A DNA stretch of 64,000 bases from a virus (IMGVR_UViG_3300006028_000010:36330-100329), one strand, 5' to 3'; numbered from the stretch's first letter, positions 1,075-60,751 are shown. Numbers and translations: made by a program. The notes: generated by a model from the sequence alone, not told the origin.

Positions 1075-1133
1075 AAGAGACCCCGGCAACGGCGGCAACC
1101 GTCCCGGGGCGTGGCCGACTGGTAGGAGTCGAC
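1075..1133 (+). promoter_or_regulatory. Nuclease-associated two-hairpin leader, copy 1
   Basis: AAGAGA CCCCGG CA ACGG-CGGCAA-CCGT C CCGGGG CGTG GCCGACT-GGTAGG-AGTCGAC, then GTG. Confidence 0.8.
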
Positions 1134-1844
1134 GTGGGCAACAGTAAGACGAAGGTGAACCGACCGACCCCCTCTGTTGTCTTTCAGATAGACGAGTTCA
1201 CCTACGAGGGGCACCCTGTGCGGACGGTGGTCCTTGACGATCAGCCCTGGTTCGTCGCATACGACGTGTGCCGGATCACCGGGTGGAACCTCATGACTGC
1301 TGTATGGTCAGTTCACGGTGATGACCGGTACAGCATCCCCGCGCGATGCCTAGGAACGGGTCAGGCTCATCTGCGGATCACTGGCGACGATGCGGTCTGG
1401 TTCTTCTCCGAGTATGGCCTTCATGACGTCGTGTTTCGCAGCGGCGATCCCTACAGGAAGAACTTCCGGCGTTGGATCATCGGCGAGCTGCTTCCAACCA
1501 TCGCGGCACGAGGACTGCCTTCAACTAACAGAACGGACCTGCCGGCGCGTCGCCACAAAGTGACGGTCAGCAAGAGCGATCAGCGTCGCCAGAAGGTGGA
1601 TCCCCTGTGGCGCAAGCCGCACGCTCTGTATCGCTTGTTCACCGACCGCTGCGATCTGTTGTATGTGGGCATATCACTATCGGCGCTTCAACGGATGAGT
1701 TCGCACCGGGCACGACAGCCATGGTGGCACGAAGTGGCATCGATCGAGATCGAGTACTACCCGACTAGGCAAGCCGTACTTAGTGCTGAGAGACAGGCGA
1801 TCCGCACGGAGCATCCCAGGTACAACGTCGCGCTCGTGAGTTAG
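1134..1844 (+). CDS. Bro-N antirepressor domain fused to a GIY-YIG endonuclease
   Basis: N-terminal FTYEGHPVRTVVLDDQPWFVAYDVC...SEYGL...FRRWI (Bro-N); C-terminal ALYRLF...LLYVGIS...R...H...AERQAIRTEHPRYN (GIY-YIG). Confidence 0.8.
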   Translation: MGNSKTKVNRPTPSVVFQIDEFTYEGHPVRTVVLDDQPWFVAYDVCRITGWNLMTAVWSVHGDDRYSIPARCLGTGQAHLRITGDDAVWFFSEYGLHDVVFRSGDPYRKNFRRWIIGELLPTIAARGLPSTNRTDLPARRHKVTVSKSDQRRQKVDPLWRKPHALYRLFTDRCDLLYVGISLSALQRMSSHRARQPWWHEVASIEIEYYPTRQAVLSAERQAIRTEHPRYNVALVS

Positions 1845-1859
1845 CAGGGGGGGTCAACC

Positions 1860-3122
1860 ATGCCGAACAGTCGTTTGCGTCCAGGCGAGCCGCCGCGCAC
1901 CGTCCGTTTCGACGAACGCACTCGCACGCTTGCGGACGGCACCACCAAGACCGTTATCCGTGCGCGGGCCTACGTGTGCAACCTTCAGGGCCGCCGCGTG
2001 GAGTGCTCCGCGAGCGCGGCCACACAGAAACAAGCCGAACGCAAGCTCCGTCACCTCATTGCTGAAACCTTCTCCAGTCGTCGACCGACCATCAACGGCC
2101 AGACCCGCTTGCGCGCGTTCGCTGAGGTCATGTTCGACGAGAAACGCGCCATGGTCGCCGAAGCCCAGATGTCACCCGGCTCCCTACGGACTTATGAAGG
2201 GCACTGGCGGCGACACATCGAACCCGAACTCGGGGACCTCGCCGTCGAGTGGGTCGGCGTGCAACGCTGCGACCGGTTCCTGAAAACCCTGCGGGCCGCA
2301 CACGGCTATGCCACCGTGAAAGGCGTCCGCTCGGTGCTGTCAGAGATCCTCGCGGTCGCCGTGCGGCATGAGGTCATCCCCCGTAACCCCATCGAAGGCT
2401 GCGCCGACATCCACGGCGACGGCCGGCGCCGCATCAAAGCCCTCGAGGCCGGGGAGGCGGTGCACATTTGGCGGTTACTGTCAGACCTTGCCCGCACCCC
2501 CGCGCCGGCGGTGAACAACCGGCGTTACCGGGCGATGATGTGCGAGGCGTTCATCCCTGATCTGTGGTTGTGGATGCTCGGCACCGGGGACCGGATCTCT
2601 AACGCCCTCGCTGTCCGCTGGCCCTTGATCGACATGGTCAACGGGACCGCGCGCCTCGGCCCGAACGTGATCCGGGTCCCCGGCGAAGGTTTACGGATCA
2701 ACGAGGGCACCAGCAAAAGCCAGGAAGTTGAGGGCGTTGATCTGCCTGAGCAGGTGATCGCGATGCTGCTCGCCCGCCAACAACGGGATGACTACAACCC
2801 GAAGGGGCTGGTGTTCCCCGGCCGGTTCGGGGAGCTTCGTGACCCGTCGAACGTGTCCAGCAAGCAGCTACGGCCAGCGTTGAAAGCGATCGGTTACGGG
2901 CATGTGTCGTCGCATTGGTGCCGCCGCACCCTCGGGTCGGAACTGAACGCCGCTGGGTGCACCTTGATGGAGATCGCTGGTCGTCTCCGTCACTCCGATT
3001 CGCGGACGACTGAACGTCACTACATCGCTAAACGGGGCGGTAACTCCCGCGTCAAGGCCGCGATCGAGGCCATGCTGGACACCGATCCTGAACAAACCGT
3101 GATCACATTGAACCGCAACTAG
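1860..3122 (+). CDS. int: Tyrosine integrase
   Basis: Catalytic motifs GDRISNALAVRW (R), SHWCRR (HxxR), LRH and TTERHY (Y); next to the tRNA-derived core. Confidence 0.92.
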   Translation: MPNSRLRPGEPPRTVRFDERTRTLADGTTKTVIRARAYVCNLQGRRVECSASAATQKQAERKLRHLIAETFSSRRPTINGQTRLRAFAEVMFDEKRAMVAEAQMSPGSLRTYEGHWRRHIEPELGDLAVEWVGVQRCDRFLKTLRAAHGYATVKGVRSVLSEILAVAVRHEVIPRNPIEGCADIHGDGRRRIKALEAGEAVHIWRLLSDLARTPAPAVNNRRYRAMMCEAFIPDLWLWMLGTGDRISNALAVRWPLIDMVNGTARLGPNVIRVPGEGLRINEGTSKSQEVEGVDLPEQVIAMLLARQQRDDYNPKGLVFPGRFGELRDPSNVSSKQLRPALKAIGYGHVSSHWCRRTLGSELNAAGCTLMEIAGRLRHSDSRTTERHYIAKRGGNSRVKAAIEAMLDTDPEQTVITLNRN

Positions 3123-3142
3123 GGAAAGGAGGCCACTAGCCG

Positions 3143-3652
3143 ATGCAGACCTGGACAACTGTGGCGGATAAAGCTGCTTGGGGCGATGGCCCGTGGGTGG
3201 ATGAGCCCGACAAGGTGCAATGGGTCGACCAGGCAACCGGTCTAACATGCCTAGCGAAGCGCAGCGGGACGTCTGGGAGTTGGTGCGGTTACGTCGGTGT
3301 CCATGCCGATCACCCACTCCACGGCCGTGACTACGACTCGGATGCCGCTGGGCACCTCGAGGTGCATGGTGGCCTCACGTACGCGGACGGCTGTCAGGAA
3401 GACGAACGGCCTATTGAACACCGCGTGTGCCACATCCCGGCACCCGGTGAGCCGGATGACGTGTGGTGGTTCGGTTTCGACTGCGCGCACTGCAGGGATT
3501 ACAGCCCAGCGATGGCTGCCTGCATGACCGCGGTGGGGGTGCCCTATGACCGTTTATACGGTGAGGAGTACCGCACCTTGGCGTACGTGCAGGCGGAATG
3601 CGCGGATCTTGCTAAGCAACTCGCTGACGTAGCGGCAGGAGACGCGTCATGA
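3143..3652 (+). CDS. Conserved phage hypothetical protein
   Basis: WCGYVG / VHGGLTY / WWFGFDCAH motifs; strong AAGGAGG RBS. Confidence 0.75.
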   Translation: MQTWTTVADKAAWGDGPWVDEPDKVQWVDQATGLTCLAKRSGTSGSWCGYVGVHADHPLHGRDYDSDAAGHLEVHGGLTYADGCQEDERPIEHRVCHIPAPGEPDDVWWFGFDCAHCRDYSPAMAACMTAVGVPYDRLYGEEYRTLAYVQAECADLAKQLADVAAGDAS

Positions 3653-6145: not shown

Positions 6146-6901
6146 TTATCCTTTGAAGCCGGCGCGGGTTAACGCTGCGATGGTCTGGGGTCCGATGTCT
6201 CTACCGTCCGCGCCGGTGATGCCCACTCGCCGCTGAAATTCGGCGATGACCGCTCGGGTCATGTCCCCGTAGTATCCGGTCACTGGTAGTTTGCTGTATG
6301 ACGCGTAGTTCGCGTTGAGCCAGGTTTGTAGGCGCCGGATTTCGTCGCTGGTCTGGCCGTAGTGCATCTCAATGATCGGGCCTGGCTGCGGTGGCGGCGG
6401 CGGGTGGTTGCCGCCCGGGTTGGCGTACGCCATGAACACGTCCCACGGGAAATTCGGGCCGGGGTCGGTGTGCGTTCCATCGTTTTTTCCGAGGGTCCAG
6501 TCCCAGTGCCCGCAGATACCTGAGTGGTCCGCGCCGACTTGCGCTGGGGTGAGTTTCACCGCCGGGATGCCCCACTTGGCGCACCATGCGCGGGCGACGG
6601 CGGCGGCGGAGCGGAGCATCCGGTCGTGGGCTAGCCATTCGGAGCGGGGCCATTTCGCGAACCCTGTGAAGCAAACTTGGAGTGATCTGTGGTTGCCGGA
6701 CAGCATCGCCCATGCTGCGACGTCGTCGGGTAGGTATTGGATGGTGGTGGTGTCGTCGACGATGACGTGGTAGGAGGCTTCGACGCCTGGCTGGTCCAAG
6801 TAGTTGACTAGGCCCGCTGCTGTGGTCGCGCCTTCCGCAGTGTGCACGCTGATGAGGCTGATGGGGGTGCCTTGGCGGTTTTCGCAGCCTCGGGGTATCA
6901 C
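6146..6901 (-). CDS. Endolysin: N-acetylmuramoyl-L-alanine amidase plus peptidoglycan-binding domain
   Basis: VHTAEG, ASYHVIVD, ICGH..., HTDPGPNFPW; C-terminal GYYGDMTRAVIAEFQRR...IGPQT. The GTG overlaps the holin stop; the upstream part of the 482-aa ORF is shadow. Confidence 0.88.
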   Translation of the reverse strand: MIPRGCENRQGTPISLISVHTAEGATTAAGLVNYLDQPGVEASYHVIVDDTTTIQYLPDDVAAWAMLSGNHRSLQVCFTGFAKWPRSEWLAHDRMLRSAAAVARAWCAKWGIPAVKLTPAQVGADHSGICGHWDWTLGKNDGTHTDPGPNFPWDVFMAYANPGGNHPPPPPQPGPIIEMHYGQTSDEIRRLQTWLNANYASYSKLPVTGYYGDMTRAVIAEFQRRVGITGADGRDIGPQTIAALTRAGFKG

Positions 6902-25553: not shown

Positions 25554-26749
25554 TACAAAAGCTCCATTTCCCCGGTGATACTCAAAATTCCGGCCTGCGG
25601 GTAGTTACCCGAGATGTAGGGGATGCCGGTACCCGTGAATTGGGATGATGTCGACGCGACTTGGTAGTAGCCGAGACGGCAGTCGCTGGACGAGAACGGG
25701 TACTGCGGGTACATCAGGTTCCCGGATGCGAAGATGACCGCGTCGCCAACCCACCGGGTGGTGTTGGTGGCCACATACAGCCAGGTGTGCAGGTGGGTTT
25801 CTTGTTTGGCGAACGCCCCCGCGGGTAGGAGTGTGAATACCGCGCCCCATCCCATGTTGTAGGGGGAGTTGCCCCAGTCGAAGAAGTAGTTGAGTCGCAG
25901 TGTTTTACCGACGGTTTGGTAACGGGCCACGGTTACCGCGCCGGACCCGAGGCTGCAAATTTTGGTGAGGTCGACTGCGCTGCCCGGCCCGCTGGGCTGG
26001 TAGTAGAGGGACGGGGTGAAACTGGACCATCCGGTGAGCGACACGATAGGCACCCACGCCTGTGCGGTGCCCTCCCACCCTTCGTAGGCGAGGGTGGTGA
26101 GGTTGTACCGCATTTGCCCCGGGTAGCCGCCTTGGCGGGTGTCGATTGATGTTGCTGGGTAGATGCCGCCGCGGGCGGTGGCGTACACCCTGCGACCGGA
26201 GATGTCGCTGGTCAAGATTTGGGTGGTGGCTGCCCGGACAGTGACCGCGGCCAGCAGGAAATCGCCTTCGGTGAGCAGCCCGGTGGGTTCCGCCGGGGTT
26301 GATGAGGGGGTGCCCTGAAGGATGACGATGTCCGCGGTGCGTGTCGGGGCGGGGGTGTCCACGTCACCGTCGCGGATGCGGATCACCACGTAGTCGATGC
26401 GCGGGTTGGAGGCGTTAGCGGTGGCGAACGTGATCGGAACAGGTGAGGTGATCGCACCCAGGTACACGCCCCGGTAGGAGCGGGCGATCATGTAGTTGCC
26501 GAAGTTGACTTGGGCGCCCATGTTCGCGGTGGGGGTGTTCGCCGTGACCTGGCAGTCGGTGATGGTGCCGTTGCTGGTTTGGGTGGGGAAAATACCCGAG
26601 CCGAAACCGAACGAGCCGCCACCGGGCAGCCCCTGGCTTAACCCGCCGAGCGCGATCCGCCAGTCGTCGGTTGTGTTGCCTATCCCGTTAGTGACATCCT
26701 TGTGCACGGCGACGGGATCCGTCATTTGGGATAAATTGGAAATTGTCAA
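25553..26749 (-). CDS. Minor tail protein
   Basis: ANASNPRIDYVVIRIRD...GTPSSTP...LAAVTV...GGI; TTG start overlaps the HNH stop. Confidence 0.75.
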   Translation of the reverse strand: MTISNLSQMTDPVAVHKDVTNGIGNTTDDWRIALGGLSQGLPGGGSFGFGSGIFPTQTSNGTITDCQVTANTPTANMGAQVNFGNYMIARSYRGVYLGAITSPVPITFATANASNPRIDYVVIRIRDGDVDTPAPTRTADIVILQGTPSSTPAEPTGLLTEGDFLLAAVTVRAATTQILTSDISGRRVYATARGGIYPATSIDTRQGGYPGQMRYNLTTLAYEGWEGTAQAWVPIVSLTGWSSFTPSLYYQPSGPGSAVDLTKICSLGSGAVTVARYQTVGKTLRLNYFFDWGNSPYNMGWGAVFTLLPAGAFAKQETHLHTWLYVATNTTRWVGDAVIFASGNLMYPQYPFSSSDCRLGYYQVASTSSQFTGTGIPYISGNYPQAGILSITGEMELL

Positions 26750-27345
26750 GCCCCCATCCTGGCCCCCTTGCGCTGGTTGCACACCAGGTGAGCCAATTGG
26801 ACGTTATGTAGCGCGTGAACGCCGCCGCGAGTCAACGGAGTAATATGATCTAGTGTTGGACTTAGCGGGTGTGTGTACTTTACGCCTTTTTGTACAGGCT
26901 CCCCGCACAACTGGCAGATCCAGTTATCACGACGACACACGTCTATCCGAGAAAACGTAGCCATCTCGATACGATAACCCGTACGCCGTTTATACCCGTT
27001 GCGTCGTGTTAGTTCCTTAACAATATCATGATTGTCAGCACGGTAACGCGCCTCTCGTCGGAGAATCATCTCACGCCCAGGCCCTAGCCTACGCGCTTTC
27101 TGTGTACATGAATTGCTGCAAAACCTACGGTTACGCTGGACACCCGCGGGAAGCATTCGGTCACAGCCAGTGCGTTCACAACTCCGAGCGGTTGAAGAGT
27201 CCCCTCGCGCTCTGCGTTCACATCTTAAGCCGACGACATGATGTTTACATGCGCGTGAACAATAAATCTTGTCAGAACGATTAGGTATAAAACGCTTGCC
27301 GCAACGTGTATCCGCGCAAGCGCGCGGGGTATGTATAATCGCCAC
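26746..27345 (-). CDS. Free-standing HNH endonuclease with two N-terminal Cys4 repeats
   Basis: RDNWICQLC...LDHITPLTRGGVH...NVQLAHLVCN; YCSRAC and FCSNSC. Confidence 0.88.
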   Translation of the reverse strand: MAIIHTPRACADTRCGKRFIPNRSDKIYCSRACKHHVVGLRCERRARGDSSTARSCERTGCDRMLPAGVQRNRRFCSNSCTQKARRLGPGREMILRREARYRADNHDIVKELTRRNGYKRRTGYRIEMATFSRIDVCRRDNWICQLCGEPVQKGVKYTHPLSPTLDHITPLTRGGVHALHNVQLAHLVCNQRKGARMGA

Positions 27346-27426
27346 TGTCTGACCTGCCTCACAGGTTGGGCCACGCCCCCGGACGGTTGCGCCCGTCGCG
27401 GGGGTCCGTTTAATCTACGCAGCATA
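27346..27426 (-). promoter_or_regulatory. Nuclease-associated leader, copy 2
   Basis: TATGCT...AAACGGA CCCCCG C GACGG-GCGCAA-CCGTC CGGGGG CGTG GCCCA ACCTG-TGAGG-CAGGT CAGACA GTG. Confidence 0.82.
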
Positions 27427-37057: not shown

Positions 37058-38308
37058 TCACCCCGTAGAGGGGAGTGGCTCACCTGGGTGAAACGTGGCC
37101 CAGTAACGACACCTCTTATTGCAGTAAGTAGCCCCACGGCGGCGGCCTGGTGCTATCTCTGTACCGCACGCAGGGCAGTGCCTGTAGGCAGGATCACCAG
37201 GGTAGTTCGGGTTATTTCGTTTGTAAATGTAGCACGACCTACAGCAGCCCTTTACTTGGATAAGGGCCGACTTGCCGCACAATGCACAAGGTAACCGTTC
37301 GCTAGAAACCGGGGGGACATCGTTCATTTTAATGAAATTTTCGATGTTCCGCCGAGACCCACGACTGCGCGAACCAGCGCGCCATTCAACAAGCAGTAAC
37401 GCATGCTTGGACACGTTGCATGTGGCGCAAGCTGGCAGGATGTTACCTATCCCACCTCGACCACCCCGAGAAACCGGCACCACATGGTCAATATGTAGTT
37501 TGTTCGGCCGATCCCCACAATAGGCGCAACACCCACCGTAGCGATTCACGAGACGACGCCAGTCGCGTTCTAGTACCGCGACAGTGAAAGGGTTGTCTCT
37601 CACTAGCCTACGTCGATTACGGCCCCATAGACGCATATACAACCTGTTGTTTTCGCGCCACACACGCTGCCCCTGGCGTTGACTACACTCCTTTGAGCAG
37701 TATTTCCAACGCACAAAGTCGCCAGGCGTGAAAACTGAGTCGCACTCCTGGCACATAACTTTATCGGGCAACGCCGAGCGACCCATAGTCGCGCGGGAGT
37801 AGCACAAGCTGCCACAATATTTTACATCAATTCGGCGATGATCCAGTGACTTCTTGCACCCGATATAGTTGCATTGACGACCGGCTTTCGGTGGACGCTT
37901 TCGGCCAGCATTACCGCCGCCGACTGCCCACGACTTGCATCTGTCTGAACAGTATTTCCGTTTACGGTCCGATTCAGCTGGAATTATCGTGTCACACGCC
38001 AAGCAAACACGATCACCAACTGGCAACCGCTTTACCTCAGGTGGGTGTTCCCGATACCAGTGAAGGCAAGCGGAAGAACAGAATCTTCGTTTCCAGTTTG
38101 CTTCCGCTGGTATCGCGGCGTCACACGCCAAGCATGCCCGCCCTGCCTGATTGATTCCATCTCGTTTACGCCGAAGTTCAACGAGTTCAACGGCACATGC
38201 TTCACATAACTGACGGTGAGCGCGGCGCTGTTGATCGCGCCTTACAATAAACTCACTAAGCGGCTTACACTCATTACACCTAGTGCAAACGTTGGTACGC
38301 TGGGACAT
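37058..38308 (-). CDS. HNH endonuclease with multiple Cys4 zinc-finger repeats
   Basis: CAYCG...IDHVVPVSRGG...NILPACATCN; four CxxC..(F/Y)CxxxC repeats before the nuclease and one after. Confidence 0.88.
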   Translation of the reverse strand: MSQRTNVCTRCNECKPLSEFIVRRDQQRRAHRQLCEACAVELVELRRKRDGINQAGRACLACDAAIPAEANWKRRFCSSACLHWYREHPPEVKRLPVGDRVCLACDTIIPAESDRKRKYCSDRCKSWAVGGGNAGRKRPPKAGRQCNYIGCKKSLDHRRIDVKYCGSLCYSRATMGRSALPDKVMCQECDSVFTPGDFVRWKYCSKECSQRQGQRVWRENNRLYMRLWGRNRRRLVRDNPFTVAVLERDWRRLVNRYGGCCAYCGDRPNKLHIDHVVPVSRGGRGGIGNILPACATCNVSKHALLLVEWRAGSRSRGSRRNIENFIKMNDVPPVSSERLPCALCGKSALIQVKGCCRSCYIYKRNNPNYPGDPAYRHCPACGTEIAPGRRRGATYCNKRCRYWATFHPGEPLPSTG

Positions 38309-38376
38309 GTTGGACCTGCACTCTCAGGTTCGACATGTCCCAGCGGGCTGGCCTAATCGCTTGCCGGGGCCTTACT
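38302..38376 (-). promoter_or_regulatory. Nuclease-associated leader, copy 3 (divergent, buries the ATG)
   Basis: AGTAAGG CCCCGG CAAGCG...CGCT GGGACATGT CGA ACCTG-AGAGTG-CAGGT CCA ACATGTCCC. Confidence 0.7.
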
Positions 38377-38392
38377 CCGTCGATCTGGACCA

Positions 38393-50016: not shown

Positions 50017-50891
50017 TCCACCTCCAATGCTGCCCTGACGCCCTGCTCTAGGCCGATCTTCGGCTCGTAAACTTTGAGCATCTCGGTGGGGTCACCAACC
50101 CGATACCTGACCCCAACGGGTGAATCCAGACGGTGGTGTATCTGAGGGCCGTAGCCAACGCTCTTACACACGAGGTCGGCGAGCTGGTTGAACGAGGTGC
50201 CGATCCCGGTGCACAGGTTCAACGGACCGGGGTGGTCCTGTTCCACGACGGCGAGGGCGGCGGATATCACATCGTCCACGTGGATGAAGTCTCTGACCTG
50301 CTCACCATCACCCCACACGGTGAACGGTGACTCCCGTCGGCGTGCCCGGTCGATAAAGCTGGGGAAGGGGTAGTCGAGGCTCTGCCCAGGGCCGTAGCCA
50401 GAAAAGGTTCTGAGCACGTGGGTTCTGATGCCCTCAGCTTGCGCCTCAGCAGCTAACCGCTCCCCAGTAAGCTTCACCCACCCATAAGTGGCATCCGGCA
50501 ATTCTGGATTGTGAAGATCGACGTCAATCTCTCGCAGCAAGCCTGCATCATCTTTACTTTGACGTGATACTGGATAGACCGCTGAGGACGACCAGTAGAT
50601 GATGTGATCCGGTCGAGTTCGTAATGTCCATTCGAACATCGCCCCATCTAGCATCAGGTTCATAGCACCGATATATGTGGGGCGGCCCTCAATGTCTACT
50701 CTACCACCAACATGGGCGGCACAATGCGCGACCAGATTGAACTTCGTGCTTTCGCGACGGAAGAAATCTCGGGCATCTATTCCATTATTGTTTATGTCAA
50801 CCGATGTGACGGACCAATCGCATTTATCAAGCTGGCAGACTATGTGTCTGCCGATAAATCCATCAGCCCCAGTCACCAGCGCCCGCTTCAC
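50013..50891 (-). CDS. NAD-dependent sugar epimerase/dehydratase
   Basis: [36 protein letters not shown]; GTG overlaps the HNH stop. Confidence 0.9.
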
Positions 50892-51466
50892 TTCTGTCTC
50901 CGAGGCTTCTTGTCTGCGCAGATGCCACCCTGTCCACGATTGCAGTTGCATCGACATTTACGCGGCCTAGTGTACGGTCGCCGGTTAAGCATCTGCTGAT
51001 TTGGAGTTGCCCACCTTACGTTACCCGGCTCATAGTTACCGTCGTTGTCGATCCGATCCAGGCTCATGCCTGGCGGTCTGGGTCCCATGTCTTTGTAGAA
51101 GTTTTCAAACTTCATCCATCGATCGCAGACTTTGATTCCTCTGCCACCATAATCTGAGTAGCTGGGAACATTCGGATTCAAGCACCGCGATTTCATGGTT
51201 TTCCACACGCCGTATATTAAAGTGTGTCGCATTCCATGAGTTCGGTGTGTATCCCCTGCATGTTCTCTCCGGTAGCATCCGCACGAAGACGTGTGCCCAT
51301 TTCTGAGGTCGGCAGACAACTTAATGCAAGCGTTTCCACATTCACAAATGCAGTTCCATCTAGATGTACCACCAGGTAGCGAACTAGACCCCTTAGAGTT
51401 ACTAGCTTGGGATATTACGGTGAGCCGGCCGTAGACGTGGCCGGTCCGGTCTATAAGCTTAGGCAT
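50888..51466 (-). CDS. Free-standing HNH-type endonuclease
   Basis: GRLTV...WNCICECG...SCGC...[12 protein letters not shown]...[20 protein letters not shown]. Confidence 0.88.
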
Positions 51467-51545
51467 GTCGGTCCTGCTCCTAACAGGTCGACCATGGCCT
51501 CGGGCCTGTTACCGCAGGCGCCGGGGTCCTTACTTGATCAGTATA
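51467..51545 (-). promoter_or_regulatory. Nuclease-associated leader, copy 4
   Basis: TATACT GATCAAGTAAGGA CCCCGG C GCCTG-CGGTAA-CAGGC CCGAGG CCATG GTCGACCTG-TTAGGAG-CAGGACCGAC ATG. Confidence 0.85.
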
Positions 51546-52976: not shown

Positions 52977-52985
52977 AACGCCCAG

Positions 52986-53285
52986 TCACTTTCTTCCCGC
53001 GCGCCGTGGACCACCCGGCGGGTCACCAGTCAACACGACCACCGTCAGGAACGCGGCGACAAGCACAACATGCGCCCCGACCAGCGACACGAGCCGATTA
53101 CCCGGGCCACGCCAAAACGTGACCGCCCCATTAACCGCCACGAACACGGCAGTCACAACCCAACCCCGCCAACTAACAGGCGCCCAGCCCCAACCGAGAT
53201 ACCGTTTCGGACCGAACCACGCCGTTCTCGTCACCCGAAACGACCTCATAAACAGGGCCACCTTCGCATCCGCCGGTTCGGTCAC
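52986..53285 (-). CDS. Small membrane protein
   Basis: WFGPKRYLGWGWAPVSWRGW motif plus 2 TM. Confidence 0.65.
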   Translation of the reverse strand: MTEPADAKVALFMRSFRVTRTAWFGPKRYLGWGWAPVSWRGWVVTAVFVAVNGAVTFWRGPGNRLVSLVGAHVVLVAAFLTVVVLTGDPPGGPRRAGRK

Positions 53286-53509
53286 TGCGGTGGCGGCGCA
53301 ACGGGGTTAGGCGATGGGATTGGTGCAACAGACGACGTGGGCGACGGGGGAATCACAACACCCCCACGCCTAAGGTTGAAACCACCCACAGCCGCAACCA
53401 CAACCAACGCGATCAACACCAACACCAACACCACACCAAGCAACACATACGGCCACCGCTTACGCTTCGGCGCCGCCACATAAACCACACCAGGCTGCGG
53501 AGCCGTCAC
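53282..53509 (-). CDS. Small membrane-anchored protein
   Basis: KRKRWP, one TM and a Pro-rich tail. Confidence 0.55.
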   Translation of the reverse strand: MTAPQPGVVYVAAPKRKRWPYVLLGVVLVLVLIALVVVAAVGGFNLRRGGVVIPPSPTSSVAPIPSPNPVAPPPQ

Positions 53510-53557
53510 CAGTCACCCCGTCCCTTCCCGAACCAATGAGACGGCGCTAACCCGCAC

Positions 53558-54241
53558 CTAAAGGAGGGCCTTCAACTTCGCGACATCGTCATGGAACCGG
53601 TCCGCCATATACGTGAAATACGCGGCACTATCACCAGACATCCGCCCCGGACTGTTCGCGTCCTCATACCCAGCGTCCATCGGAGCCTTCCCCAACGCCG
53701 GATGAACATGCTCAACAATAACATCCGGCAGGTAAGTGATCCGGTTAATCGCATTACCAAGCTCAAGCCACACAAGATCCACACACAAGTGGACCATCGA
53801 TGGTGGAGCCATGTAACCCAGGGTGGTCACGATGTCCGACGTCATGGCCACCGCAGTCGGCATGTTCTCGCCCTGCAACAAATCATTGCCATACACGAAA
53901 CCCGTACCACCCGACAAACACTCACAAAACCGCTGATCCCACCCGGCGGTGCGAGGCCGATGATCATCCCCCATGAAACCCAAAAACCGGTACCTCGACG
54001 CGTTAGCTACAGCCACCGCGTTCAACGTGCCCACCATGCGCAGCCGAGGACCAACATGCAACAACACACCCCGCATGCGGCTGATCACAGCCTGGTAACG
54101 GTTCAGCTCCGGGTCATCAACATCCACAGCGAACAACAAATCAGCCGCACCCGTAGACGTGGACTGCCACGCCTCCCACAGAGCCTCCGCATTATGAGGA
54201 CGACCCCGGGTCGGGACAATAACTAGGAGGTCCGCAGTCAT
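53558..54241 (-). CDS. GT-A (family 2-like) glycosyltransferase
   Basis: VIVPTRGRP, FAVDVDD, FMGDD, VEHVH. Confidence 0.82.
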   Translation of the reverse strand: MTADLLVIVPTRGRPHNAEALWEAWQSTSTGAADLLFAVDVDDPELNRYQAVISRMRGVLLHVGPRLRMVGTLNAVAVANASRYRFLGFMGDDHRPRTAGWDQRFCECLSGGTGFVYGNDLLQGENMPTAVAMTSDIVTTLGYMAPPSMVHLCVDLVWLELGNAINRITYLPDVIVEHVHPALGKAPMDAGYEDANSPGRMSGDSAAYFTYMADRFHDDVAKLKALL

Positions 54242-54480
54242 CAGTGTTGTTCGGACGGCGCGCGTCCCGGCCAAAAACCGGTAGCTCTGTGGTGAAGATT
54301 GGCGCACAATCCGTCAACTACAGTTGGACCTACGAATTTAGACAGGTGGATTCGGCATCGATTAAAGTCCCCCGGAACTCCCCAGCGAATCTTGGCTGCA
54401 CCCTCTCCTTCAGCCCAATACCGCATTAAGCGCTCGGTTGAGACAGCATCTCCGGGGGTCACTTCACGTCCGGCTACCAT
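54241..54480 (-). CDS. Conserved actinophage small protein
   Basis: YW..GEGAAKIRWG.PGDF.RC...GLCANLH motif; GGAGG RBS. Confidence 0.7.
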   Translation of the reverse strand: MVAGREVTPGDAVSTERLMRYWAEGEGAAKIRWGVPGDFNRCRIHLSKFVGPTVVDGLCANLHHRATGFWPGRAPSEQH

Positions 54481-54502
54481 TTGACACCACCTCCTCCTTC
54501 GG

Positions 54503-55312
54503 TCAGGGACGAGGTTTTATCCCTCTCCGCATTCGCCATTCCATGAGGAATGAGTCATGCTTGCTACAATTGCATGACTTGCACGCGGCAACAATGTTGC
54601 CTATCGAATGCGCTCCACCACGGTTAATGGGAACCACATGCTCCATCGTTAGCGGTTTCTTACCTCCGCAGTAGAAGCAACGGCCTCGACTACGCAGACG
54701 AATTCGGCGCCACTCCAGCTCTGGAACTCCGTAACCGACGGTAGCAGCACGTTTGACCGCATTGCGTTGCTGTTGCCGAGCCGCGTACCGTTCACGGTTT
54801 TGAACTTTGCCGTATTGCCCACCGCAATAGCTGGAACACGTCTCCGCGTCGGCCCTGTATGCGGTAATATCCGTTTGGCAGATTACACAATACTTCGGTG
54901 CCCGGGCGGCTATGCGGACCACACGAGTTCTGCGTGCTATTAGCACGTATCGGCAATGCTCCGAACAGTACGAGCTATCAGACCGCGGTCGTTCGAACAC
55001 GCGACCGCACGCCTCGCAGGGCATTTGAATGCGCGTTACGTGTTTTTTGGCGTTCTGCTCAGAGTTATTCAGATTTACACGGCATGGCTTGCTACACGTT
55101 CGCTGTGTTGCACGGGTCGGGGTGAACTCAGCTCCGCACCACTCGCAGTTGGCGGGTTCGTGCACACGAGGTAAGCGCCCGTGTTGGCGACGTAGTTCAA
55201 CTTTCCTTGCACACCGTAACTGACTACGGCATTCATCGGAACATGCGCGTTGATTGATCCTCTGCGGAACATATAGTGCCGAACACCAGGAACATCGGGT
55301 ACCGTGGGCCAC
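54503..55312 (-). CDS. HNH endonuclease with four Cys4 zinc-finger repeats
   Basis: Four CxxC..CSxxC repeats; CFYCG...MEHVVPINRGG.HSIGN...CKSCN. Confidence 0.88.
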   Translation of the reverse strand: MAHGTRCSWCSALYVPQRINQRACSDECRSQLRCARKVELRRQHGRLPRVHEPANCEWCGAEFTPTRATQRTCSKPCRVNLNNSEQNAKKHVTRIQMPCEACGRVFERPRSDSSYCSEHCRYVLIARRTRVVRIAARAPKYCVICQTDITAYRADAETCSSYCGGQYGKVQNRERYAARQQQRNAVKRAATVGYGVPELEWRRIRLRSRGRCFYCGGKKPLTMEHVVPINRGGAHSIGNIVAACKSCNCSKHDSFLMEWRMRRGIKPRP

Positions 55313-55402
55313 GGGCGTTGCACCTTCTAAGGCTAGGTGTAGCTGCCTAGGCCCTGGGTGACGTGTGGAGCGTCCCTGGGGCCGTTTTGTTGCTTAAGGG
55401 TA
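55313..55402 (-). promoter_or_regulatory. Nuclease-associated leader, copy 5 (divergent)
   Basis: TACCCT...AAAAC GGCCC CA GG GACG-CTCCACA-CGTC A CC CA GGGCC ... CACCT-AGCCTTAGA-AGGTG ... GTG. Confidence 0.6.
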
Positions 55403-55407
55403 TCACG

Positions 55408-55770
55408 TTATTTTTTGACGCAGGTGACTACGATGTTGTCGTTGGATTGGGCGGTGCTGCCGGGGGCTGGTTCGATTTTGGCGACGGTCCAGTCGGCGAG
55501 GTGGGCGGTGTCGACGGATTGGTCGGTGTTTTGTGAACCGTATTTGATGTTGTCGAAGCCTGTTTTGCGGAGTTCGTCGTCGGCGAGTTGCGCGTTTTTG
55601 CCTACGAGGTCTGCGGGGATGGTGAGTTTGGTGTTGTTGCCGTTGGTTTCTGTGGCTGCGGTGGTGGGTACGGGTGGTTGGTTGGGGTTGGGGTTTTTGT
55701 TTGTGCAGCCGGCGAGTAGTGCTGCTGCGGTGAGGGTGGTGAGGAGTGTGGCTGTGACGGGTTTGTGCAT
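55408..55770 (-). CDS. Lipoprotein with PASTA-like domain
   Basis: Lipobox LAGC; IPADLVGKNAQLA..ELRKTGF...PAPGS. Confidence 0.7.
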   Translation of the reverse strand: MHKPVTATLLTTLTAAALLAGCTNKNPNPNQPPVPTTAATETNGNNTKLTIPADLVGKNAQLADDELRKTGFDNIKYGSQNTDQSVDTAHLADWTVAKIEPAPGSTAQSNDNIVVTCVKK

Positions 55771-55817
55771 GATCGCTCCGCTGGGGGTGAGGGGTTCTGG
55801 GTGGTTAAGTCGCTGGG

Positions 55818-56318
55818 TTACCGTACCAACCGGCCTGGATAGTCCTCGCCGACCGCCGCGCAATGCTCACGAACCCGTCTGGTCAGACAGGCGATGCTGA
55901 CGCCGAACTGGGCGGCGATGACTCGCCACAACGCACCGGTGAGGCGTTTCTGGTAGGCGGCGTGGATGTCGTCGTCTGTAAGTTTCTTCACCGGCCCGCG
56001 TATCGCGCGGGGCTTACTCGCCCGTTTCACCGTTTGTCGTAGAATTGTTGGTCGCAGCCCGATGCGTGTGGCGATCTGATCCTCAGCGAGTCCGCTACCG
56101 GCAAGACACTTGTAGTCATCCAGCGTGTCTGCCCATGGTTTAGTGAGTCGTGCATAGTCGGCCCACGACCCGTCGCATTTCGATGCGTAGCAGCAGTTGA
56201 CGCACACGCCGCGCCCAGCGTGAACAACTGCCCCGTCGTACCGCTGCGACGCCCACGTAACCATCGGCAGATCGCAGCGGCGACAGTTCGGTGGGCGAAC
56301 GATGACACCGCCGGGCAT
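55818..56318 (-). CDS. Zinc-finger/HTH DNA-binding protein
   Basis: CRRC...GRGVCVNC plus two HTH-like segments. Confidence 0.55.
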   Translation of the reverse strand: MPGGVIVRPPNCRRCDLPMVTWASQRYDGAVVHAGRGVCVNCCYASKCDGSWADYARLTKPWADTLDDYKCLAGSGLAEDQIATRIGLRPTILRQTVKRASKPRAIRGPVKKLTDDDIHAAYQKRLTGALWRVIAAQFGVSIACLTRRVREHCAAVGEDYPGRLVR

Positions 56319-56490
56319 CCTGCGTCCTCCTGTGGACTATCGTCTTGGGGGTGCTGTGAGCGTCGGAGTCCCTATCCGATTATCTGGCGGAAGTCAGACC
56401 GAAACGATGGCGGCTCGGCGTGTCGCCGGAGGGGTCCGGGGCGCGCACCGACGCTCACAGCACCCCATCTAACGCTGACCCCGCCTCTAC

Positions 56491-56520
56491 TTGACACACT
56501 GCTCCGTACCGGAGCATGAT
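56491..56520 (+). promoter_or_regulatory. Housekeeping-type promoter with an operator in the spacer
   Basis: TTGACA-18 nt-CATGAT containing the palindrome TGCTCCG-TAC-CGGAGCA. Confidence 0.7.
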
Positions 56521-56527
56521 AGGTGGC

Positions 56528-56740
56528 GTGACTAAAACCCCGACACCCCCAGATGTCACGGATCCCGTTGAACGCCAATGGCGTAACGACTTCACCAGCC
56601 TCGCGAACGCGATCCCGACCTCTTGGATCGTCACCGACGAAGACGGATTGATGTGGATCACCACAGACCACAGAGACGACCCCCGAGCCAAGCTATATCA
56701 CAATCATTGCATCGTCGGGTACGCAAAAGGATGGCTGTGA
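56528..56740 (+). CDS. Hypothetical protein (probably leaderless)
   Basis: GTG 7 nt after the -10 box. Confidence 0.5.
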   Translation: MTKTPTPPDVTDPVERQWRNDFTSLANAIPTSWIVTDEDGLMWITTDHRDDPRAKLYHNHCIVGYAKGWL

Positions 56741-56741
56741 C

Positions 56742-57038
56742 ATGGCCACATCGACAGATGACAGTGTCTACGACGCGATCACAGAACTGTCGCAAACGCT
56801 GATTACCTGCTTTGACCGGGCAGGTGACCTACCCACGACAGGATCCGACTACAACATGGGTCAGCGCGTCGCCTACGGTGACTGTGTTCGCCTTGTGCGT
56901 CAGCATGCTTCCACATATCTACTCGCGGGTAGACCCGAGAAACAGACCGCATCATTGCTTCAGCACATGCGTAACGGATTGATCACCCCGGACGGAGACT
57001 CGCCGTCACACGTAACCTCATCAGCGACCAATGCGTGA
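56742..57038 (+). CDS. Hypothetical protein
   Basis: Abuts the previous gene; AGGA RBS. Confidence 0.5.
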   Translation: MATSTDDSVYDAITELSQTLITCFDRAGDLPTTGSDYNMGQRVAYGDCVRLVRQHASTYLLAGRPEKQTASLLQHMRNGLITPDGDSPSHVTSSATNA

Positions 57039-57189
57039 CGATCAGCTTTTGTCCAGAGAGCAAGTCGCGGAGCTGCTGGGCATCGACCCCGAGTCGGTGC
57101 GGTCGACAATGCGCCGAGCTGGAATAGCCGAGGAACGGGGCTACCCTCGAGATCAAGTGCTGGAACTGTTAAGGAACCGTCACCGGTAA
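57031..57189 (+). CDS. 52-aa MerR/Xis-like HTH protein (not in ORF track)
   Basis: MRDDQLLSREQVAELLGIDPESVRSTMRRAGIAEERGYPRDQV... Confidence 0.7.
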   Translation: MRDDQLLSREQVAELLGIDPESVRSTMRRAGIAEERGYPRDQVLELLRNRHR

Positions 57190-57229
57190 GATCGCCGCGC
57201 TCGCTAAGAGATCCCAAAAGGAGGGGCCT

Positions 57230-57583
57230 GTGATGACCGTCCCTGACGCTGCTGCTGCCCTGCTCGCTGGGATCACGAAGGGCGGTATGACGTATGGCAT
57301 CAACCCGGACATGGTTCATCATGTGCTCGCCGTGTTGGAAGACGCCGACATGGCCGTCGTGGCCCTGCCCCCGGCGAGCGGTAAGCGGGTCACGCCGGCG
57401 GGGGTTCGCATCGCCGAGTTCGATGGTGTGGTGGGGGTGAGTTTTTACCCTGAGGACGGCACGTGGCGGGTGTACGAGATTCATGACCGCTGCTTTTGGG
57501 ATCATGACGATGACCCGCTGCGGGTGGCGGCGGCTATTGTCGCGGCTGTTCGTTGGGCGCAACGCGAGAAGCGTCGTCGGTGA
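57230..57583 (+). CDS. Hypothetical protein
   Basis: AAGGAGG RBS. Confidence 0.55.
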   Translation: MMTVPDAAAALLAGITKGGMTYGINPDMVHHVLAVLEDADMAVVALPPASGKRVTPAGVRIAEFDGVVGVSFYPEDGTWRVYEIHDRCFWDHDDDPLRVAAAIVAAVRWAQREKRRR

Positions 57584-57598
57584 CGCCGTGGCGGATGC

Positions 57599-57985
57599 TT
57601 AGGGCGATGTTGAGCTGATTCGGGTTTCGAGTCCTACTGCGGCGCGGAGTTCGGCGCTGTCGGTGCGTAGGTCGCCGTGGTCGGTGGTGAGTTCGTCCAT
57701 GAGGTCGGCGAGGCCGTCGGCGATGGCGTTGAGTTTTTGTTGTATGGCGCTGTCGGCGCGGCGTTGGGTGTTTTGCAGCAGGGCCACCAGGATGAATGTG
57801 ATTATCGTGGTCAACGTATTTATGATCAACTGCCACAGATCGACATCACGAAACGCGAAATACGAAGGCAGCCACAACACGACCAACAGAACACACAAAG
57901 CGAAGAACCAGGCCCGGGACACGAACCCCGCCGTGGCGGTGGCGAACCGGTCAAACAGGGTCAGCTGGCCGGGTTCAGGCGGCAT
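57599..57985 (-). CDS. Low-affinity iron permease (Fet4-like) family small membrane protein
   Basis: FDRFA...WQLIINTLTTIITFILVALLQNTQRR...AIQQKLN. Confidence 0.8.
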   Translation of the reverse strand: MPPEPGQLTLFDRFATATAGFVSRAWFFALCVLLVVLWLPSYFAFRDVDLWQLIINTLTTIITFILVALLQNTQRRADSAIQQKLNAIADGLADLMDELTTDHGDLRTDSAELRAAVGLETRISSTSP

Positions 57986-58671
57986 GAACGATGCCTCCTG
58001 CGGGTCCACCGGCGTTGAGTTTGTTGATGGTGACGTGGGGTGCCCGCCGCCTAGGCGGGTCCGGTCAGGGCACGCCTCGGGCAACTGTCTCGGAGGTACT
58101 AGTGTCGAACCAGCACCCGCAATTACTACGGGATCTACCGTCGCGCCCAATCCGCCATTGCCACCATGCGAATAACGAACCACAGAGACGACAAGGACGA
58201 GGTGTCACTACGCCCCGTCGCTTCATTCGATGAGCGGGATTATGCCTAGGGTTCTTAGAACGCCTTGCGTTCCATGCGTGGGCGCTCACACTAGGTATCC
58301 TAGCTTAATCCCTCCGTGGGGACCCGCTTCTCTAACAACCGCGACAACGTCACAGCGGGGGTCACGGTGTGGACAGCAGGAACACGAGCAGGGCGAGGGT
58401 CAGCAGCCCCAGCAGCGCAGCGCAGACCAGCACCCCGGCACCGATAAGGATGGCGTAGGCGACGGTGGTGACGGCCCGGCGGGGACGGTGACGCCCGGGG
58501 CACAATCCGCCACCCCCGGCCGCTCAGGGTGCCGGGAACAGATCTAAGCCAGCTGCGGCGAGCACCGCGACGATCCACCACGCCTGCCACACGGATACAG
58601 CGCTCATCGCCACCCAGATGCCTGAGCCGATGACGATGACGAGGACTGCCTCGCGCACCATGGCTGGTGGT

Positions 58672-59376
58672 CTAGTTGATGAGTCGTCGGGCCTCAACGA
58701 AGCCGTTGGTGTAGAGCGGTCTTACGTGAACTGGTACCCCGAAGGTTGAGGCTTCAGCGATTTTGCCGTCGCCGACGTACATGACGACATGATCGATAGG
58801 CGTGTAATACAGGAGCAGGTCACCAGGGCGTAGGTCATTCAGGCTGACCCGGTAGCCAACACTGGCTTGCGCGGCTGCGGTGCGGGGCAGGTTGATCCCG
58901 GCTTGTTTGTAGGCCCATTGGATGAGCCCGGAGCAGTCGAAGCCACCTGGTGAGTCGCCGCCGTAGACGTAGCGTGATCCGATTTGGGAGATGGCGGCGG
59001 TGACGGCTTTCGCGGCTGCTGGTGCTTGTTGCGGTGCGGGGGTTTGGGCTGGTGCCGGGGTTGGCAGCGCAACCGGCGCGGGCCGTTGCGCGATGGGGGT
59101 TTGGGGCGGAACGCTGTACCAGCGCCGAGCCGCTGGGGGCGGGTACCAGTCAACGCCGGCGGGGGCCATCCGGGGCGGCGCGAGCATCATCAACGCCGGA
59201 CGCGGGTGGGGGTGGGGGCGTCGCATCGGTTGGGTAGCGGCCACGGTTTTCACCGGGGCGGTGATCACGGGCAGGGTGCCGGTGGTAGTGACGAGGGTGA
59301 GCGCGGTGACGGTGGCACCAGCGGCGGTGGGAATCAACTCCCGCGCCGGGTTCCGCTTCCTGTGCCGGCCCGCCAT
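58672..59376 (-). CDS. Secreted NlpC/P60 peptidoglycan endopeptidase
   Basis: YVYGG...FDCSGL...LPRTA...PGDL...HV.MY.GDG. Confidence 0.9.
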   Translation of the reverse strand: MAGRHRKRNPARELIPTAAGATVTALTLVTTTGTLPVITAPVKTVAATQPMRRPHPHPRPALMMLAPPRMAPAGVDWYPPPAARRWYSVPPQTPIAQRPAPVALPTPAPAQTPAPQQAPAAAKAVTAAISQIGSRYVYGGDSPGGFDCSGLIQWAYKQAGINLPRTAAAQASVGYRVSLNDLRPGDLLLYYTPIDHVVMYVGDGKIAEASTFGVPVHVRPLYTNGFVEARRLIN

Positions 59377-59756
59377 CAGAGGCCACCCCAACAGCTGCGG
59401 GACGCTGCCCACGGGCTCAACCCGGCAGACGCGAATGCCCGATCAGCGACGGCGAACTGCTGAGCAACGGTCGCGTCCTTAGCGCGATGCGCGTACCTGC
59501 CGCCGCCAAACGCGAGCCACGTGGAATCTAAAAATTGAAACAGGCCACTGGCTGTTGACGACGGGTTCTGCGCGTGAGGATTGCCACCCGATTCACACCG
59601 AATGATTGGGCCCCACGCTGGGTCGGCGTACGCCGTTCCCGTGTCGAGCACGATAGTACAGGCGACGGCCGCGACGGATGCGCCGATCACAAATCGAGGT
59701 ACCCGCCTACGGCATTGCCCGGGCTTCCGGTGACGACCACGACATGCTTGATGCAT
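59376..59756 (-). CDS. Secreted Rpf-type transglycosylase
   Basis: Signal peptide ending AYA; W..IIRCESGGN...GLFQFLDSTW.AFGG...QQFAVA...G..PW. Confidence 0.85.
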   Translation of the reverse strand: MHQACRGRHRKPGQCRRRVPRFVIGASVAAVACTIVLDTGTAYADPAWGPIIRCESGGNPHAQNPSSTASGLFQFLDSTWLAFGGGRYAHRAKDATVAQQFAVADRAFASAGLSPWAASRSCWGGL

Positions 59757-59768
59757 GGCGGTAGTGCG

Positions 59769-59947
59769 CCAGTGGGTAACGCCTCACGGAAACCCTTCGC
59801 TGGTTCCAACCAGCTAAGCGGTCGGTTTTAATCGCCGAACGGTCGTCTACAATGGACTACGTTCCATCAGGACGAATCGCTGTCCGGTGCTCTATCTGCG
59901 ACGGCGAGACCCTTGCAGGTCTCCTCCATGCAACCGCTCTCCACCGG
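59769..59947 (-). ncRNA. Candidate multi-branched structured RNA or leader
   Basis: Seven mutually compatible helices found by eye, two with GNRA loops. Confidence 0.55.
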
Positions 59948-60670
59948 AGGCCGTTGCGCTGGAGTGAACGAAAGATCAGCTAAGCTCAGCCTTCGATGTG
60001 AGCGCCCCGGATTTAGGCGTCTAAATTGCGCCTGCTTGCATGCTTGATTACAGAATTTCGCGTTTCGCCGCTTGGTGTCCGGGATCCTTTGGCCGCAGAA
60101 CCCGCAGTGGCGTACTGGTCTCGGCGCGCTGGCGCGCCGATGTCTCGGCTTCACCGGCCACACGCCGTACTGATTGGTGACCCAGCCACGCTCTTCGGCG
60201 TGCTCCAATGCATGCTCTGCTTTGGTCTTGGCTTTGAGGTTAGCGGCACTGTTGTCGATTTTGACTTCGTTGACGTGGTGTACGTCGTGATCGGGATTGA
60301 TCAGCGCGCCCGCGTCCCACATCTGCTTGCGATGTTCAAAAACATAACCATCACGACGCGCTAACGGGTGTGACGGCTCGTAAATGTCTACATACCCATC
60401 AGGACGAACGCGTCGCTTCACCCCGTAATTGCGTACAGTGCAAGTCGGGTCGCCATGCCGTTTCCATCGGCAGTAGTGCTTCAAGCACCAGCCACGAATA
60501 CGTGCAACCCCGCCGCAATCAGAAATCGAACAGATAGTCACTGGTCGGCGACGCGCATCACCCGCCGAGCCGGGATCTCCCCGCAATCGCCACCGTTGGT
60601 AGTGGGTTCCGCACCACCCACGAGCCTTTCGTGGTCTGTCGCAGCCTTCAACCGCGCACGTAACATCCAT
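59867..60670 (-). CDS. HNH endonuclease with Cys/His zinc-finger repeats
   Basis: Two C...C...RGWC..HY.RW repeats; GYVFEHR...VHHVNE.K.DN...NL; C-terminal CGFC...FCNQAC. Confidence 0.85.
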   Translation of the reverse strand: MDVTCAVEGCDRPRKARGWCGTHYQRWRLRGDPGSAGDARRRPVTICSISDCGGVARIRGWCLKHYCRWKRHGDPTCTVRNYGVKRRVRPDGYVDIYEPSHPLARRDGYVFEHRKQMWDAGALINPDHDVHHVNEVKIDNSAANLKAKTKAEHALEHAEERGWVTNQYGVWPVKPRHRRASAPRPVRHCGFCGQRIPDTKRRNAKFCNQACKQAQFRRLNPGRSHRRLSLADLSFTPAQRPPVESGCMEETCKGLAVADRAPDSDSS

Positions 60671-60751
60671 GAACGTCGACCTGCCTTCATCAGGTTGACC
60701 ACGCCCCGGGGTCGTTGGCGCGACCGCCGGGGTCCTTACTGTCTTATTCTA
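60671..60751 (-). promoter_or_regulatory. Nuclease-associated leader, copy 6
   Basis: TAGAAT AAGACAGTAAGGA CCCCGG C GGTCG-CGCCAA-CGACC CCGGGG CGTG GTCAACCTG-ATGAAGG-CAGGTCGAC GTTC ATG. Confidence 0.85.

Follow-up and report, generated by a model that had tools for sequence, protein, structure and literature searches.

The stretch of DNA analysed here (the window, 64 kb) comprises bases 36330-100329 of the 100,329-bp virus record IMGVR_UViG_3300006028_000010 in IMG/VR, which has a G+C content of 62.7% and is judged complete. Six free-standing endonuclease genes lie in the window, and a sequence-only reading had placed one and the same leader with two hairpins in front of all of them. The sequences of the six stretches read as it described, and the downstream genes all encode nucleases as it stated, namely a Bro-N/GIY-YIG gene, three HNH genes of PF01844, one HNH_3 gene and one HNH gene assigned to phrog_374 (5e-63). 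Five of the leaders belong together in sequence and form the module described in this work, which probably encodes a small cis-antisense RNA directed at the gene behind it. The sixth, at 55313-55402, has another sequence and was not detected (E > 10) by either of the two covariance models used below, so that the proposal of a single leader holds for five genes and fails for this one.

The large terminase of the phage shares about 50% identity with its counterparts in Streptomyces, Gordonia and Curtobacterium phages (best ~51%), and a close relative of the phage genome was not found in the phage database by megablast. The source is therefore an actinophage without close cultured relatives. Among the listed matches in public sequencing runs there was no RNA run, and the sole full-length match, a rhizosphere metagenome, is a possible source.

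Copies of the module in the phage genome

A covariance model of the gene strand (R1) was built from the five window copies. Run over the window and the whole 100,329-bp genome, it gave exactly five matches, each ending at the start codon of a nuclease gene, with E-values of 1e-10 to 1e-18 and a next-best match at E ~0.03-0.1. These E-values were computed on the model's own seed sequences; more than 150 further loci, which fit the model over its full length, provide independent support.

Read 5' to 3' on the gene strand, the module opens with an optional -10 hexamer (TANNNT), after which come hairpin 1 and, past a short linker, hairpin 2, whose loop contains the Shine-Dalgarno (SD) sequence; GAC and the start codon close it. 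In copy 6, the actual ATG (60670) lies 4 nucleotides (nt) beyond the canonical start position. Identical stretches of 11-13 nt are common to all copies. Several details given by the sequence-only reading were recovered, including the inner stems that it listed, the 6-nt loop ending in AA in four copies, and TANNNT in four copies (27417-27412, 51545-51540 and 60751-60746, plus TAACGT before copy 5, the stretch of different sequence). Its statement that hairpin 2 covers the ribosome binding site (RBS) was not borne out, as the purine-rich SD sits in the loop and only the 3' arm of the hairpin lies between the SD and the start codon.

A weak model match at 57893-57981 was considered as a further copy and was dropped, given folding z-scores of about 0 for both strands. 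The module was not found at two further HNH-domain genes located outside the window (G000:C1:2146-3993 and ~28000-28800), one of which is a 628-amino acid open frame with the HNH domain near its N-terminus. A 'packaging HNH' gene at 49356 (49051-49368) had been named as lacking the leader; the assignment found no backing, as the gene has no Pfam family at E ≤ 0.001 and genome searches with HNH and HNH_3 were empty there.

Strand preference, promoters and tail

A second covariance model (R2) was constructed for the strand opposite the gene, and its statistics refer to 89 distinct sequences with 1672 paired cells. Here and below, locus counts, percentages and averages on strand, -10 hexamers, tail and cargo are among the matches listed in the searches. 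In the antisense structure, 99.0% of the cells are standard pairs, with at most 17 non-standard cells, and slid controls on the same alignment pair only to 39-49%. In this alignment, compensatory changes were present at 12 of the 19 antisense pairs, and the covariation score was 0.478 versus 0.150 in shuffles, none of 500 of which reached the observed value.

Any helix covaries on both strands, and the gene strand is indeed still 95.7% paired with compensatory changes; the wobble pairs are diagnostic of the strand. As many as 258 of the 1672 antisense cells are G.U, two of the wobble pairs being nearly fixed. A G.U pair in the antisense RNA is an A.C mismatch in the mRNA, and these 258 cells therefore favour the opposite strand. 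Among the variable pairs read on the gene strand, there are 22 A.C and one G.U in hairpin 1, and 24 A.C and five G.U in hairpin 2, while helix 1 of the sense model contains a single G.U cell and 18 mismatched cells. As judged by minimum free energy, the opposite strand is the more stable at 100 of 102 loci, by a mean of 5.0 kcal/mol (Wilcoxon p 3e-18). The antisense fold consists of two clean hairpins, one with a 7-9-bp stem and the anti-SD in its loop, and the other with a 12-13-bp GC-rich stem that includes one bulged G. A 'closing helix', formed by the CGUG past hairpin 1 with the start codon, was also considered, but its pairing is invariant and gives no evidence for or against.

Conservation extends past the start codon into unrelated open reading frames (ORFs), where the sense strand has A at +7 (88%), T at +11 (89%) and A at +12 (88%). 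On the opposite strand these letters form TANNNT, which was found at +5 to +9 in 140 of 158 loci and exactly at +7 in 127, often with a G before it; the hexamer thus falls in codons 3-5. TANNNT is the -10 element at 80% of the transcription start sites of Streptomyces coelicolor, where the -35 is weak (PMC4895711). Given the spacing of the antisense -10, an antisense transcript would start approximately at the start codon. A quarter of the loci start with GTG, which is CAC on the antisense strand; the idea of a leaderless ORF on the antisense RNA was rejected, as its start codon would not be conserved.

The proteins themselves show the corresponding constraint at their N-termini. For the ORFs starting at 1134, 38308 and 51466 and at loci L001-L117, these follow M-x-(E/Q/N/K/D)-x-(T/R/I/K), for example MSQRT, MAEPT and MPKLI, with A as the second base of codon 3, T as the final base of codon 4 and A as the first base of codon 5.

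On the gene strand, 80 of 160 loci have a TANNNT at a distance of 13-25 nt upstream of hairpin 1, versus a background of 1.5%, in agreement with the earlier proposal of a portable unit with its own promoter-like -10, at least for half of the copies. Transcription from this -10 would begin ~6 nt ahead of hairpin 1, and the entire 5' untranslated region (UTR) of the mRNA would therefore be covered by the antisense RNA. In the 8 nt past antisense hairpin 1, there are 3.6 U on average versus 1.4 in the background, and four or more U in 57% of loci versus 3%. The GC-rich stem of 12-13 bp followed by this U-enriched tail resembles an intrinsic terminator, although a strict scan, which asks for at least 5 T in 8, calls none in copies 4 and 6. 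By this geometry, the predicted antisense RNA is about 68 nt long and takes in the start codon, the loop with the SD and all of the UTR.

Copy 5, located ahead of the HNH gene at 55312, lies outside the family. Its antisense strand folds with -56.7 kcal/mol (z -3.4) and its sense strand with -31.6 kcal/mol (z -0.4), a strand difference of 25 kcal/mol, and a U tract much clearer than any in the five-copy family follows its terminator-like stem. As far as can be judged from these features, copy 5 is the same antisense design in another sequence family, and may represent a sister family of the module. This non-homologous copy, with the same predicted design, its strand difference and the tail GUUUUGUUGCUU, counts in favour of an antisense RNA.

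Table. Module copies, their parts and the genes behind them (window coordinates unless another contig is named).
Feature	Position	Strand	Parts and evidence
Module copy 1 (predicted antisense RNA gene and promoter)	1067..1152	-	R2 72.3 bits, R1 69.2 bits; R1 match 1065-1136 (+); antisense -10 TACTGT 1141-1146; anti-hairpin 2 1116-1131; hairpin 1 1081-1109; U-rich tail, complement of 1071-1078; fold antisense -31.0, sense -24.6 kcal/mol
Bro-N/GIY-YIG nuclease gene behind copy 1	1134..1844	+	Pfam Bro-N 9.7e-12, GIY-YIG 2e-4; PHROG endonuclease 1.9e-21
Module copy 2	27328..27418	+	R2 65.2 bits, R1 78 bits; R1 match 27344-27420 (-); antisense -10 TATAAT 27334-27339; hairpin 1 27377-27403; sense -10 TAGATT 27417-27412 (-)
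HNH endonuclease gene behind copy 2	26746..27345	-	Pfam HNH 2.6e-8
Module copy 3 (divergent member)	38290..38383	+	R2 28.1 bits, E 1.7e-5 in genome; R1 match 38306-38384 (-); antisense -10 TACGCT 38296-38301; anti-hairpin 2 of 12 bp; hairpin 1 imperfect; fold antisense -32.6, sense -23.9 kcal/mol
HNH endonuclease gene (416 amino acids) behind copy 3	37058..38308	-	Pfam HNH 2e-10
Module copy 4	51448..51540	+	R2 68.8 bits; R1 match 51464-51542 (-); antisense -10 TAAGCT 51454-51459; sense -10 TATACT 51545-51540 (-), 12 nt past stop codon of upstream gene; cassette absent between homologous neighbours in relative G003
HNH endonuclease gene (192 amino acids, no Pfam match) behind copy 4	50888..51466	-	phrog_374 HNH endonuclease 5.2e-63
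Look-alike module (copy 5)	55296..55405	+	Outside both models, layout same, sequence different; antisense TACCGT 55300-55305 (at +7); two strong antisense hairpins; terminator-like stem 55350-55383, then GUUUUGUUGCUU
HNH endonuclease gene behind look-alike module	54503..55312	-	Pfam HNH 8.1e-11
Module copy 6	60655..60746	+	R2 75.4 bits, R1 89.6 bits; R1 match 60672-60748 (-); antisense -10 TAACAT 60661-60666; hairpin 1 60704-60732; sense -10 TAGAAT 60751-60746 (-)
HNH_3-type endonuclease gene behind copy 6	59867..60670	-	Pfam HNH_3 1.3e-4; family search above cut-off; PHROG HNH 1.1e-15
Cassette in relative G003	L241 (G003:C1:86000-95770), module 6445-6535, gene to 7119		Endonuclease VII-type gene

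Distribution, mobility and cargo

A search with the pattern GACCCCSGC-N12-20-CSGGGGCGTGG identified at least 117 loci in viral contigs and at least 120 in bacterial contigs (one genome per species). As this pattern sets the outer stem and the CGTGG linker, the other positions alone carry independent information. R1 matched at full length in 109 of the viral loci listed and in 58 of the first 100 bacterial genome loci, the latter nearly all from Streptomyces, Nocardiopsis and related actinomycetes. Among the same 100 genome loci, pattern matches in Planctomycetota, Gemmatimonadota, Proteobacteria and similar groups did not pass R1, and provide a useful negative control. In all, the restrictive pattern and the models gave at least 160 unique copies from viral contigs, actinobacterial genomes and the window. 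Four of five actinomycete genomes tested carry at least 2-7 copies each, and Streptomyces natalensis ATCC 27448 carries at least seven. A match at E ≤ 1e-6 was present in 17 of 151 genomes sampled evenly across the phylum; this count includes an unpublished genome (G158), the published count being 16 of 150.

Cultured phages also carry the module. R2 matches were found in Rhodococcus phage REQ2, Arthrobacter phage Hestia and Gordonia phage GMA1, and BLAST matches in the Gordonia Asapag group. In REQ2 (gp37) and Hestia (gp86) the end of the module coincides with the annotated start codon. In GMA1 (NC_030902.1, ~40340-40429; L118), the annotated start of the HNH gene gp68, at 40382, lies inside the module, which predicts a start at 40411-40413; the recorded start probably lies 10 codons upstream of the true one. 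A BLAST match of 78% identity is also present at an HNH gene of Microcystis phage MinS1 (MZ923504.1, 40378-40450; H37), for which the reported cyanobacterial host is odd given the otherwise actinobacterial motif. Six records of large Streptomyces plasmids (H38-H43) carry the module, mostly in stretches with no listed gene.

The leader had not been recognised as a named RNA family, and the searches agree with this. No family of Rfam 15 reached its gathering score in the 64-kb window, and at relaxed thresholds the only match to copy 6 was the Pseudomonas small RNA P37, at chance level (12.8 bits versus a cut-off of 50, E 2.9). The element was not found described in literature searched by motif sequence and by topic (homing endonuclease or HNH with antisense RNA, and Streptomyces small RNA); PMC6582537 has no bearing on it.

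The module is portable between genes. Pairs of leaders that are 95-97% identical head proteins with no detectable similarity, and in 54 of 97 pairs with a leader identity of at least 85% the proteins are unrelated. In two such pairs, the block of homology opens in the sense promoter region and breaks off at the start codon, but the letters A...TA are kept in the differing coding sequences beyond the boundary, which argues for selection on the embedded hexamer.

Presence and absence of whole cassettes could be followed in a distant syntenic relative of 95.8 kb (G003), which has direct terminal repeats, shares its gene order with window positions 50000-62500 and carries four module copies at other positions. 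The homologues of 51558-52130 and 50013-50957 are directly adjacent in this relative, and in the window the copy-4 cassette lies between them. Conversely, between its homologues of 53558-54307 and 52123-52782 the relative carries a module with an endonuclease VII-type gene, and the window has no cassette at that place. Together with the near-identical leaders on unrelated proteins, these data bear out the earlier suggestion of mobile cassettes.

The 85 distinct proteins encoded downstream of the module in viral contigs are mostly nucleases, about 56 of them falling in nuclease clusters, which comprise HNH, HNH_3, endonuclease VII, MUG113/T5orf172 and GIY-YIG as well as NUMOD-motif proteins. 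The Pfam families represented are HNH_3 (17), HNH (15), endonuclease VII (8), MUG113/T5orf172 (6) and His-Me zinc loop (5), with further matches to NUMOD motifs and GIY-YIG and one match each to LAGLIDADG and DUF559/Vsr. The remaining ~29 are mostly small Cys-rich ORFs of no family. The strong tie to free-standing nuclease genes that had been proposed is thus present in phages; in bacterial genomes (loci L121-L220, for example L129:3820-4122), from Streptomyces and related genera, the predicted enrichment fails, as only three of 47 downstream ORFs encode nucleases and most are small. Twenty of these 47 form one family of ~100 amino acids, which has a hydrophobic N-terminal stretch followed by an Arg-rich region, with motifs resembling RLVRPYLV and HGID. 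This family has no Pfam match and only 'hypothetical protein' entries in the Protein Atlas; its members might be toxins of type I systems.

A predicted antisense RNA and its relation to known systems

Each copy is probably a compact, portable control module in front of a selfish gene and encodes a cis-antisense RNA of ~68 nt, which would pair with the translation initiation region of the gene behind it and keep its translation low. The antisense -10 in codons 3-5 would start transcription approximately at the start codon. The RNA would first form the mirror image of hairpin 2, the loop of which carries the anti-SD, and would end at that of hairpin 1, where the GC-rich stem and the U-enriched tail lie. 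Its complementarity extends over the entire 5' UTR and includes the SD and the start codon, so that it would pair with the mRNA, with the first loop-loop contacts formed by the SD and anti-SD and by the hairpin 1 loops as kissing pairs. Pairing would then block ribosome binding, trigger cleavage of the duplex, or both, and the nuclease would be kept low. The motif, the strand-specific covariation, the embedded hexamer, the portability and the distribution are direct observations, from which we infer the synthesis of the RNA, the position of its ends and its repression of translation.

Several points weigh against this interpretation. Its basis is comparative throughout, and because the search pattern fixes the outer stem and the CGTGG linker, their conservation outside the window arises by construction. 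The predicted antisense promoter lacks a -35, and U makes up only 3-4 of the 8 nt of the tail; scans of copies 4 and 6 for promoters and terminators of the E. coli-type consensus called neither. The mRNA strand, on which the SD and the start codon lie, can fold as well, which leaves room for a role as a sense leader. The scarcity of nucleases downstream of the bacterial copies means that 'nuclease control' is not the whole story. Given the contrast between viral and bacterial cargo, the module is a general device, heavily used by phage nucleases and not specific to them.

The explanation that the sequence-only reading had preferred, an RBS-sequestering switch in the mRNA, is one form of a sense-strand leader, in which the hairpins would act in the mRNA as a 5' stabiliser and translational switch and the signals on the opposite strand would be by-products. 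The module always ends at the start codon and has the SD in hairpin 2, the sense -10 lies at a fixed distance in half of the loci, and the sense structure is well paired with compensatory changes, all as such a leader would have it. However, the wobble pairs, the fold energies and the antisense -10 all point to the opposite strand. The SD is in a loop and not in a stem, the possible helix between CGUG and the start codon is invariant and so uninformative, and the conserved TANNNT in codons 3-5 has no explanation in a sense leader, which we therefore regard as unlikely. Transcriptional interference or insulation would make use of the same facing promoters, ~95 bp apart, and of the strong hairpin, by polymerase collision or by stopping antisense or read-through transcription, with no pairing between RNAs. 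The convergent geometry, in which the sense -10 precedes hairpin 1 by ~18 nt and the antisense -10 is at +7, would suit it, as would the location of cassettes directly after the stop codon of a co-oriented upstream gene. Yet collision has no need of two precise antisense hairpins, one of them with an anti-SD loop, and half of the modules have no recognisable sense promoter; this explanation appears quite unlikely.

The strand asymmetry alone is no proof of RNA, as G.T wobble is tolerated in DNA hairpins too. Bottom-strand hairpins in single-stranded or cruciform DNA could serve the recombination, homing or replication of the cassettes, and the sharp ends of the homology block and the movement of cassettes between sites would accord with such an element. 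It would leave unexplained why the module keeps a fixed register relative to the SD and start codon, why the -10 has the right distance and orientation and why the tail is enriched in U, and the downstream genes are unrelated and include no common transposase- or integrase-like partner, all of which makes a DNA-level role very unlikely. A protein-binding RNA cofactor of the nucleases, like the omega RNA of IscB (HEARO), had been raised in the sequence-only reading as the lesser option. The module is structured and adjoins HNH genes, but its partners have unrelated folds (HNH, GIY-YIG, endonuclease VII, MUG113, Vsr-like and LAGLIDADG) and many are small non-nucleases. Moreover, omega RNA is a large, gene-strand RNA specific to one nuclease family, whereas the RNA predicted here is short and lies on the opposite strand, and no match to HEARO was found in Rfam. 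A cofactor role is hardly credible on this evidence.

For the antisense RNA, a wider and more doubtful proposal can be put forward, namely that throughout the phylum Actinomycetota and its phages the module serves selfish or toxic genes as a portable 'safety catch'. As one recombining unit, it would be made up of the promoter, the 5' UTR, the antisense-RNA gene and the first five codons, on which the antisense promoter imposes its constraint, with the antisense RNAs perhaps acting in trans. Given the identical 11-13-nt stretches in all copies, the RNAs might act on each other's mRNAs; if so, all homing nucleases of a multi-copy genome would be subject to copy-number-dependent damping (multicopy inhibition).

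To our knowledge, little has been established on the control of free-standing homing endonucleases outside the T4 group. A concrete mechanism is proposed here for actinophages, with cultured phages named in which it can be studied, and an uncatalogued, strongly covarying family of putative small RNAs is added. The promoter predicted in codons 3-5 would constrain the N-termini of unrelated proteins, and annotators should be aware that what is taken for a 'leader hairpin' can terminate an antisense RNA. In the engineering of Streptomyces, the module could find use as a compact means of repressing toxic genes.

The same problem, that of limiting the expression of free-standing or intron-encoded nucleases, is solved differently in T4. 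Late transcripts of T4 homing endonuclease genes start inside the RBS hairpin. In the T4 family (I-TevI/II/III, segB and mobE), expression is limited by RNA structure at the ribosome site together with the genes' own promoters, and the RBS is held in the stem of an mRNA hairpin (PMC2988022). In the module, by contrast, the SD-like purines of hairpin 2 are found in its loop, both hairpins are preceded by the sense -10, and it is the opposite strand whose structure is under selection, as judged by wobble versus mismatch cells.

Closer parallels are found among antisense systems. The antisense promoter of SymR is embedded in symE and its RNA covers the ribosome site, silent mutations in the -10 having provided the decisive test (PMC1891008). 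The module shares with SymR/SymE and type I toxin-antitoxin pairs a predicted antisense promoter inside the ORF and a predicted RNA covering the ribosome site. SymE is a chromosomal SOS gene of enterobacteria, whereas the module is portable, multi-copy and found on many unrelated genes. At the level of sequence, the antisense layout agrees with a type I toxin-antitoxin system, and the nucleases are plausible candidates for a toxic cargo.

The nearest likeness is to IS10, in which RNA-OUT, a 69-nt antisense RNA, blocks ribosome binding on the transposase mRNA and gives multicopy inhibition (PMC5006887); control of the IS200 transposase by the cis-antisense RNA art200 is comparable (PMC4513863). 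In both IS10 and the module, the DNA-cutting enzyme of a mobile element is paired with a small stable cis-antisense RNA, only predicted for the module, which arises from a facing promoter and is complementary to the initiation region. At the sequence level, an antisense promoter lies inside the 5' end of the target and faces the promoter of the gene, and pairing, fold energy and geometry all indicate that the RNA would form stable stem-loops and be able to base-pair with the SD and the start codon. The targets differ, being HNH, GIY-YIG, endonuclease VII and other homing-type nucleases and small ORFs in place of transposases, and the module occurs in actinobacteria and their phages. Its predicted RNA is made up of two hairpins and extends over the complete 5' UTR, with the -10 placed in codons 3-5, and neither sequence nor Rfam relates it to RNA-OUT. 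The principle is thus known from insertion sequences and type I toxin-antitoxin pairs, and what appears to be new is the RNA family, the host group and the cargo.

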